Positions 6,442 to 6,842 of a DNA stretch of 40,320 nucleotides are shown one piece after another (positions within the stretch are counted from its first letter, which is position 1; each line of letters begins with the position of its first letter). The DNA is from a virus. Location: the UHGV virus genome UHGV-1432856. One strand, written 5' to 3'. The position numbers were made by a program, and so were the translations under genes. The notes beneath the pieces are model-generated. The model was not told the DNA's origin and searched no databases. It saw only the letters and a program-made list of their open reading frames with translations.

Positions 6442-6670
6442 ACCGGACTCCTCCTGCGATCCCTTCTGATACTGTCATCAGCATTACGTCATCCTCCGTC
6501 ATGTCCGCCACATCCGGGGAAGCGGGGATAACTTCTTTCCCATCCGGGCCAAAACGAACGCCTCCGGCAAGCCCTGCTGCTTTCTGCATCAGCACATCAT
6601 CTTCAGGCTCTTCGTCAGCCTCGCGCCGGTTCAGCAGACTGAAATCCAGCGGATGCATATCCGGATCGCT
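6434..6670 (-). pseudogene. T: 3' fragment of the T segment of the G-T tail assembly chaperone; 5' part and gene G missing
   Basis: Frame ends exactly 8 nt inside the H start, as lambda T does; the frame stays open only to 6721, and composition turns AT-rich above about 6670; where G, V and U should follow there are Mu-like genes instead. Confidence 0.55.
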
Positions 6671-6704
6671 GAAAAACAGGTGATTAGACTTGAGATAAAT
6701 GACA

Positions 6705-6814
6705 GGGAATAAGTGAGATATTTATGGGAAGAACTGGGTCAAAATGGGAAGAGACTAGGAGGAATATGCAATAACCTTACAGTATGTGAAAATCAGACCG
6801 GCCCGAAAAAAAAC
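6705..6814. repeat. putative transposable-phage end region: four GGGAA[TG]A-like motifs plus a CGAAAAAAAAC tract
   Basis: GGGAATA 6705-6711, GGGAAGA 6726-6732, GGGAAGA 6746-6752, GGAATA 6761-6766, spaced 14-22 bp; CGAAAAAAAAC 6804-6814 recalls the CGAAAAAAAC in the Mu L1 end site. Noncoding and AT-rich. Confidence 0.35.
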
Positions 6815-6842
6815 AGAACTCGCGCCAGCCTGATTGCAGATA

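Follow-up and report, generated by a model that had tools for sequence, protein, structure and literature searches.

Within a 40,320-nt stretch of viral DNA (UHGV virus genome UHGV-1432856; hereafter the window), we found that a lambda/434-type tail module stops in the middle of one of its genes and that an unrelated phage begins at the very next base. We are highly confident that this junction records the integration, by DDE transposition, of a ~36.5-kb BcepMu-like transposable myophage into the T gene of a resident lambda/434-type prophage. An initial annotation, made from the letters and open reading frames of the window, had proposed the transposition of a Mu-like phage into T of a lambdoid prophage. 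The core of that proposal stands, because the same element end adjoins unrelated genes elsewhere and, in a sister contig, the far flank carries T and G, but the identity of the invader has to be revised: it is BcepMu-like and not Mu proper. The element is a common E. coli prophage and its target is the standard lambda G-T gene. The window junction is present in public viral contigs (IMG/VR), and the case documents cleanly, in natural sequence, where E. coli BcepMu-type phages end and that they duplicate 6 bp of their target.

The lambdoid side and the breakpoint

Window positions 1–6680 hold, on the minus strand, a lambda/434-type tail module that runs from the cut J gene (J′) to H and then through the last 81 codons of T, in unbroken alignment with positions 16981–10302 of phage 434 (OL657226.1) at 96.4% identity. 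Its genes are the 5′ part of J, the central tail fibre gene (1–1477, cut by the window edge and collinear with 434 15505–16981); the tail tip genes I (1538–2209), K (2107–2850), L (2856–3554) and M (3554–3883), which are open reading frames collinear with M, L, K and I of 434; and an intact lambda-type tape measure gene, H (3880–6441), whose 853-aa product has the length of 434 H and matches the Pfam families TMP_2 and Tape_meas_lam_C (PF06791, 1.6e-69; PF09718, 3.7e-21). The 434 coordinate at which this alignment ends, 10302, lies within the T part of the G-T chaperone CDS (9710–10548).

Next to H, also on the minus strand, is the 3′ remnant of T (6434–6680), comprising 81 codons and the stop, which at the nucleotide level is 96–98% identical to the T gene of 434 and of further lambdoid phages in matches that end at 6680–6686. 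The initial annotation had recognized a T frame terminating 8 nt inside H, and the frame does end at 6434, giving an 8-nt overlap. It had also estimated that only the last ~75–95 T codons precede the break and that the frame is open at most to 6721; we found a stop at ~6721–6723 and a lambda-derived portion confined to 6434–6680, with the residues upstream of 6680 read from foreign DNA. When the 82-aa remnant was compared with PHROG 32165 ('minor tail protein'), the match was restricted to the C-terminal end of the profile (positions 202–285 of 290). Pfam gave no match to the remnant, although PHROGs did, and the reconstructed G-T protein described below also matched. The remnant keeps an internal ATG open reading frame of 74 aa (6434–6658, minus strand). 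The ribosome-binding region of H sits inside the remnant as well, so H could still be translated if a transcript leaves the element past the hairpin that follows mor.

The change from one phage to the other is abrupt. GC content drops from 0.593 (6000–6680) to 0.407 (6681–6842), in keeping with the AT-rich turn above the T remnant that had been noted from the letters. In a megablast search with positions 5900–7700, lambdoid phages matched up to 6683–6686 and E. coli prophages and Escherichia phage PhiKM matched from 6679–6681, and no single record spanned both halves; the few bases of overlap between the two groups of matches are a matter of chance. Alignment with a lambda-type genome, the route suggested for finding the exact breakpoint and followed here with 434, puts the end of lambdoid homology at 6680 and the start of element homology at 6679–6681. 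The breakpoint is a single phosphodiester bond, 6680|6681. Mu-like genes encoding Mor, GemA, Gam, an AAA+ ATPase and an rve transposase do run from 6843 onward, as the initial annotation had stated, but a break at 6843 itself was rejected because 6681–6842 is conserved as element sequence in all other copies.

The element terminus

The first base of the element is the T of a 5′-TG at 6681. It directly follows the near copy of the 6-bp target-site duplication, AACAGG (6675–6680; 434 coordinates 10302–10307), and the same hexamer stands after the element's other end in the IMG/VR contig L011. That opposite end finishes in CA, both in L011 and in L008. The near end starts TGATTAGACTTGAGATAAATGACAGGGAATAAGTGAGATATTTATGG, and the other end, read from the outside inwards, starts TGATGCGCCGCGCGATAAATGCAC...GCGATAAATGG, with TGAT and GATAAATG at identical positions in the two ends. 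In addition to the terminal TG, the near terminus (6681–6730) contains two GAGATAWWT repeats at element positions 12–20 and 35–43, which are presumed to be transposase-binding sites. Both ends of Burkholderia phage BcepMu have this same layout: they begin TGAAG... and carry GAGATATTT or GCGATATTT at positions 12–20 and again ~23 nt further in. Termini of the form TG...CA are described as typical of BcepMu-related elements that have an rve core (PMC2628397).

The AT-rich 162 nt at 6681–6842 recur at 98–100% identity in every other copy of the element and are its own terminus, with no spacer between it and the lambdoid DNA. Between the GAGATAWWT repeats and the mor stop codon, just 3′ of mor on the minus strand, this terminus holds a hairpin with 16-nt arms followed by UUUU (6791–6835; RNA fold −24.9 kcal/mol, z −3.8, with 0 of 200 shuffles as stable). 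It is likely the terminator of the early/middle operon; a simple terminator scan did not call it, and folding supports a stable hairpin.

Gene content and classification of the element

The early arm of the element runs on the minus strand from 15109 to 6843, toward the near end, and the late genes run on the plus strand from 17888. In the place where lambda would have G, V and U, the initial annotation had seen a Mor/C-like gene, and the gene there is indeed a mor-type late/middle transcription activator (6843–7232, minus strand; PF08765, 1.3e-43), the last gene of the early arm and positioned as gene 1 of BcepMu. Further genes of the minus strand are gemA, of the gp16 family (7204–7653; PF06252, 8.3e-41); a Mu Gam-like host-nuclease inhibitor (9855–10385; PF07352, 9.9e-41); an ExeA-type AAA+ transposition ATPase, the functional counterpart of MuB (10685–11851; PF13401, 3.8e-20; 59% identity to BcepMu gp08); and a DDE (rve) transposase (11862–13631; PF00665) with 68% identity over 581 aa to BcepMu gp09 ('Tn552/IS1604 rve transposase'). 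A divergent immunity switch occupies 14921–15621, where a Ner/Cro-like HTH gene (14921–15109, minus strand) and a repressor-like HTH gene (15160–15621, plus strand), with HTH_31 and HTH_3 matches, are arranged as genes 16 and 17 of BcepMu. Lysis, head and contractile-tail genes, assigned from the annotation of PhiKM and the EcPF7 prophage, with which this region shares 98.7–99.2% identity, fill 17888–40320 on the plus strand, a region of positive GC skew that leaves the window inside a tail fibre gene.

Two parts of the element merit separate mention. Directly downstream of the repressor-like gene and co-oriented with it, 15618–17276 (plus strand) holds two genes, of 328 aa and 196 aa, which occupy the lowest-GC part of the window (0.42–0.44). 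Neither protein has a Pfam or PADLOC match; they correspond to PHROGs 10002 and 12025, of unknown function, and are hypothetical in RefSeq, and the N-terminal part of the 328-aa protein weakly resembles Flk and a moron PHROG labelled 'membrane protein'. Their position would be typical of cargo expressed during lysogeny, such as exclusion or defence genes. At the other extreme, a 168-nt tandem repeat (39879–40320, plus strand; 2.6 copies, 86% matches) lies in the tail fibre gene where it leaves the window, and PhiKM and EcPF7 align to it in several registers.

As judged from its sequence, the inserted element (6681–40320) is a BcepMu-like (Bcepmuvirus) transposable myophage and is Mu-like in the broad sense only. 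It shares with Bcepmuvirus a Tn552/IS-type rve (DDE) transposase, an adjacent ExeA-type AAA+ ATPase, 5′-TG...CA-3′ termini with repeated motifs (TG at 6681 and CA in L011 and L008), an early operon directed toward the nearer end and opposite to the late genes, and many insertion sites with a short target duplication. The marks of Muvirus are missing: there is no MuA-type transposase, the element's enzyme giving no significant alignment to Mu gpA (E 0.45), and instead of a 5-bp duplication and early and late genes in one orientation, we found a 6-bp duplication and an inverted early arm.

This gene content also bears on whether the window could belong to a natural hybrid phage, a recombinant that has a Mu-like early region joined to lambda-type tail genes and makes use of the latter. 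Mosaic phages are common, and a Mu-like early operon does lie next to lambda tail genes on the same strand. Yet the element has complete head and contractile-tail modules of its own, T is truncated in the middle of a domain, the join coincides with a transposon end and has a hairpin after mor, and the missing half of the lambda module is found on the element's other side. We consider a hybrid of this kind exceedingly improbable and favor the insertion of a self-contained transposable phage.

Mobility and the target-site duplication

Base for base, the mor-proximal end of the element adjoins unrelated genes in complete E. coli genomes, namely cysE, irp2, yehK, rimK, dcuC, a phosphopantetheine-binding protein gene and otsB/araH, and in IMG/VR 11 distinct sequences flank the other end. 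EcPF7 contains an intact 37-kb copy between otsB and araH with CCATTT on both sides, and the matching empty site (140 nt, with one CCATTT) occurs at 100% identity in other E. coli genomes and at a coverage of at least 80% in 5,415 of 5,426 genomes. From the paired CCATTT and the empty site, it follows that this element family makes a 6-bp target duplication; that of phage Mu is 5 bp.

The copy adjoining cysE in strain N196 was tried for measuring the duplication and was dropped as a deleted remnant, EcPF7 being used instead. The N-series strains (Switzerland; N196) carry a remnant in which an internal deletion joins the transposase to the portal gene and which is truncated at an rhsC fragment, and in N196 the terminal TGATTAG of this remnant supplies the stop codon of a 3′-truncated cysE.

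Lambdoid late genes make up 4 of the 11 distinct IMG/VR flanks: Z (L016, ~434 8232), J (L019, 434 17381), a lom-like gene (L010) and T (L011). This share is probably a sampling effect of a collection restricted to viruses, since the neighbors named in complete genomes are chromosomal.

Other copies of the junction and the far flank

A near-junction 33-mer recurs exactly in two independent IMG/VR contigs, L004 and L005, that come from different samples. L005 differs from the window at 1 of 7,834 bases. L004 differs at 83 of 11,774 positions. Every mismatch is in the lambda part, and 6681–11774 is free of them; 81 fall in J-I-K-L (1–3500), and the bins starting at 4001 and 6001 have one each. 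To judge from this distribution, the insertion apparently outlasted a recombinational exchange of the lambdoid tail-tip genes. The junction was absent from 5,426 complete E. coli genomes, and the 33-mer gave no match in GTDB representatives or JGI metagenome contigs, so the source lineage is rare or unsampled in those collections.

The fact that no complete E. coli genome has the junction, and that its other copies are found only in metagenome-derived contigs, would fit an assembly chimera in which two unrelated prophages of one genome or sample were misjoined at a short shared sequence. However, the two phages meet precisely at the end of a transposable element, on its terminal TG and not on a repeat, and this junction is identical to the base in two other assemblies from different samples (three in all). 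The reciprocal junction in L011 moreover has a matching 6-bp duplication, and a misjoin would yield none. We therefore attach next to no likelihood to a chimera and take the junction to be a genuine insertion boundary.

The window ends inside the tail fibre gene of the element, whose far end is predicted, from the spacing of markers in other copies, to lie ~3 kb beyond, at ~43.2–43.4 kb. The other end of the element is carried by L011 (IMGVR_UViG_3300029084_000006), which comes from the same metagenome as L005. A far-junction pattern predicted from 434 had found no match in three collections because the lambda flank differs by one SNP (CTAAGC versus CTGAGC), and the element end alone recovered this contig. 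Its junction reads ...GCGCATCA|AACAGG|CTAAGCACGG; the element side ends CATCA, AACAGG comes next, and CTAAGCACGGTGTACG... continues from there. The remaining 4.8 kb correspond to 434 5528–10308 at 96.9% identity and contain D, E, FI, FII, Z, U, V, G and the 5′ part of T. The initial annotation had anticipated that the far flank would resume T and G beside a short target-site duplication, and this sister contig, outside the window, bears out both expectations. It had likewise named what would speak against an insertion, namely lambda homology continuing through 6843 or a far flank without T and G; homology stops at 6680, and T and G resume in L011.

When the L011 flank was joined to the reverse complement of window positions 1–6674 with one AACAGG, the product gave a single HSP with 434 5528–16981. 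In the reconstruction, G is intact at 140 aa, the slippery site GGGAAAG is present, and the G-T fusion comes to 279 aa, equal in length to that of 434, and matches Pfam Phage_TAC_2 and Phage_tail_T (164–239). A split gene that is reconstructed with one copy of the hexamer is the signature of a simple insertion. The interrupted gene has the features of lambda G/G-T, in that it lies between V and H with T overlapping the H start (the 8-nt overlap in the window; V, G and 5′ T in L011) and has a −1 slippery sequence (GGGAAAG at the 434-equivalent position in L011, outside the window), but it is not intact, as the T domain is split after residue ~199. The initial claim that the G-T chaperone gene was hit thus holds for the T part, whereas G and its slippery site are intact on the far side in L011 and only the G-T fusion loses its last 80 residues.

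It could also be that transposition was followed by a rearrangement in the window genome (a deletion, an inversion or a second copy), in which case the far flank would be something other than T and G. Transposable phages give rise to deletions and inversions alongside their insertions, the copy adjoining cysE in N196 is a heavily deleted remnant, and the far end is outside the window. A 37-mer from window position 39.57 kb did not have L011 among its matches and so provided no physical link between the window end and that contig. On the other hand, L005, from the metagenome that yielded the intact far junction of L011, is nearly identical to the window, with the one difference given above, and the 33.6 kb of element in the window are collinear with intact copies. 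A rearranged far flank is accordingly very unlikely, and we infer that simple insertion left the window genome with a far flank resembling that of L011. In the source genome, ~3 kb past the window, we would expect to read ...GCGCGGCGCATCA AACAGG CT(A/G)AGCACGG and then 5′ T, G and V, that is, a junction of the form ...GTGCATTTATCGCGCGGCGCATCA AACAGG CT(A/G)AGCACGGTGTACGTCAGCC... with minus-strand 5′ T, G, V and U beyond it.

Proposed mechanism and predicted consequences of the insertion

In DDE transposition, a transposase, with an AAA+ partner that chooses the target, joins the 3′ ends of the element to staggered target strands, and repair of the gaps gives rise to a duplication. In the present case, the rve transposase and its AAA+ partner would have joined both 3′-OH ends (5′-TG...CA-3′) to target phosphates staggered by 6 bp, and repair would have duplicated AACAGG. 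Integration probably followed infection (the non-replicative route) rather than lytic replication.

The insertion splits G-T after approximately residue 199 of 279, inside the T domain (Phage_tail_T, 164–239), and separates 3′ T, H, M, L, K, I and J by ~36 kb of foreign DNA from Nu1...V, G and 5′ T on the side of the late promoter. Work on the G and G-T chaperones by Xu, Hendrix and Duda is said to have established that assembly of the tail tube around H requires G-T as well as G. With the last 80 T residues lost and H–J cut off from the late promoter, the lambdoid prophage is predicted to be tail-defective, through loss of G-T function and a polar effect on H–J, and by analogy with lambda genetics it should no longer make tails on its own. 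For annotation, the consequence is that the DNA represents two nested prophages, which prophage callers would report as one oversized or chimeric phage or whose boundary they would misplace.

We also envision a further consequence, which we regard as improbable. Given the way the insertion is oriented, the two phages could be coupled, such that induction of the lambdoid prophage switches on the BcepMu-like phage ('piggy-back'), or lambdoid late regions could be favored targets. Under such coupling, Q-antiterminated lambdoid late transcription would come in from the tail-fibre side of the element and cross its late genes and repressor gene in antisense. Farther on, it would read the ner-like gene and the operon of transposase, ATPase and mor in the sense direction, and would then arrive at 3′ T and H. 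Were the favored-target reading true, the invader would systematically disarm resident competitors.

Comparison with known systems

The closest relatives of the element are found in E. coli. Escherichia phage PhiKM (PQ738613), which is classed as Bcepmuvirus in GenBank and whose record is a circularly permuted partial genome, has 98.6–99.2% nucleotide identity over most of window positions 6681–40303. Positions 20200–20576 of the PhiKM record include ~330 nt between the element ends that are annotated as a fragment of 'Fe2+ ABC transporter permease'; most likely these are no phage gene and stem either from host sequence carried on the ends, as in Mu-type packaging, or from an assembly join. 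The intact EcPF7 prophage is as close to the window as PhiKM is, except in a divergent immunity region (13.7–17.3 kb). The immunity/cargo variant of the window, which differs from those of PhiKM and EcPF7, is itself found with at least 80% query coverage in 97 complete E. coli genomes, at 100% identity in the 8 matches listed (AR_0015, Eco889 and others). Whereas the PhiKM-type E. coli prophages of EcPF7, AR_0015 and Eco889 sit in chromosomal genes or intergenic regions, the window copy sits in a lambdoid prophage gene.

Burkholderia phage BcepMu (NC_005882) has a collinear gene order, with mor, gemA, ..., ATPase, transposase and HTH genes transcribed toward the near end and, on the opposite strand, the repressor, lysis genes, a Mu-like head and a P2-like contractile tail. 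The two differ in host, the element being in E. coli, and in their immunity region and cargo genes; at the right end, intact E. coli copies have an invertible tail-fibre segment with a recombinase, where BcepMu instead has an acyltransferase. Phage Mu is likewise a transposable myophage with TG...CA ends, near-random insertion, a short duplication and homologues of Gam, GemA and Mor, but its transposase has no similarity to that of the element, whose duplication is 6 bp and whose early operon is inverted relative to the late genes.

Overall, the type of event is already documented, and the present case is a clean but ordinary example that introduces no new biological system. In STEC CC119, Mu-like (Sp18-type) phages lie inside resident lambdoid prophages, with 6 of 10 copies in mobile elements and several in Stx phage genomes (PMC10132054). 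Those invaders are of the true Mu/Sp18 type, whereas the invader described here is of the BcepMu type, with a transposase of an unrelated family and a 6-bp duplication.
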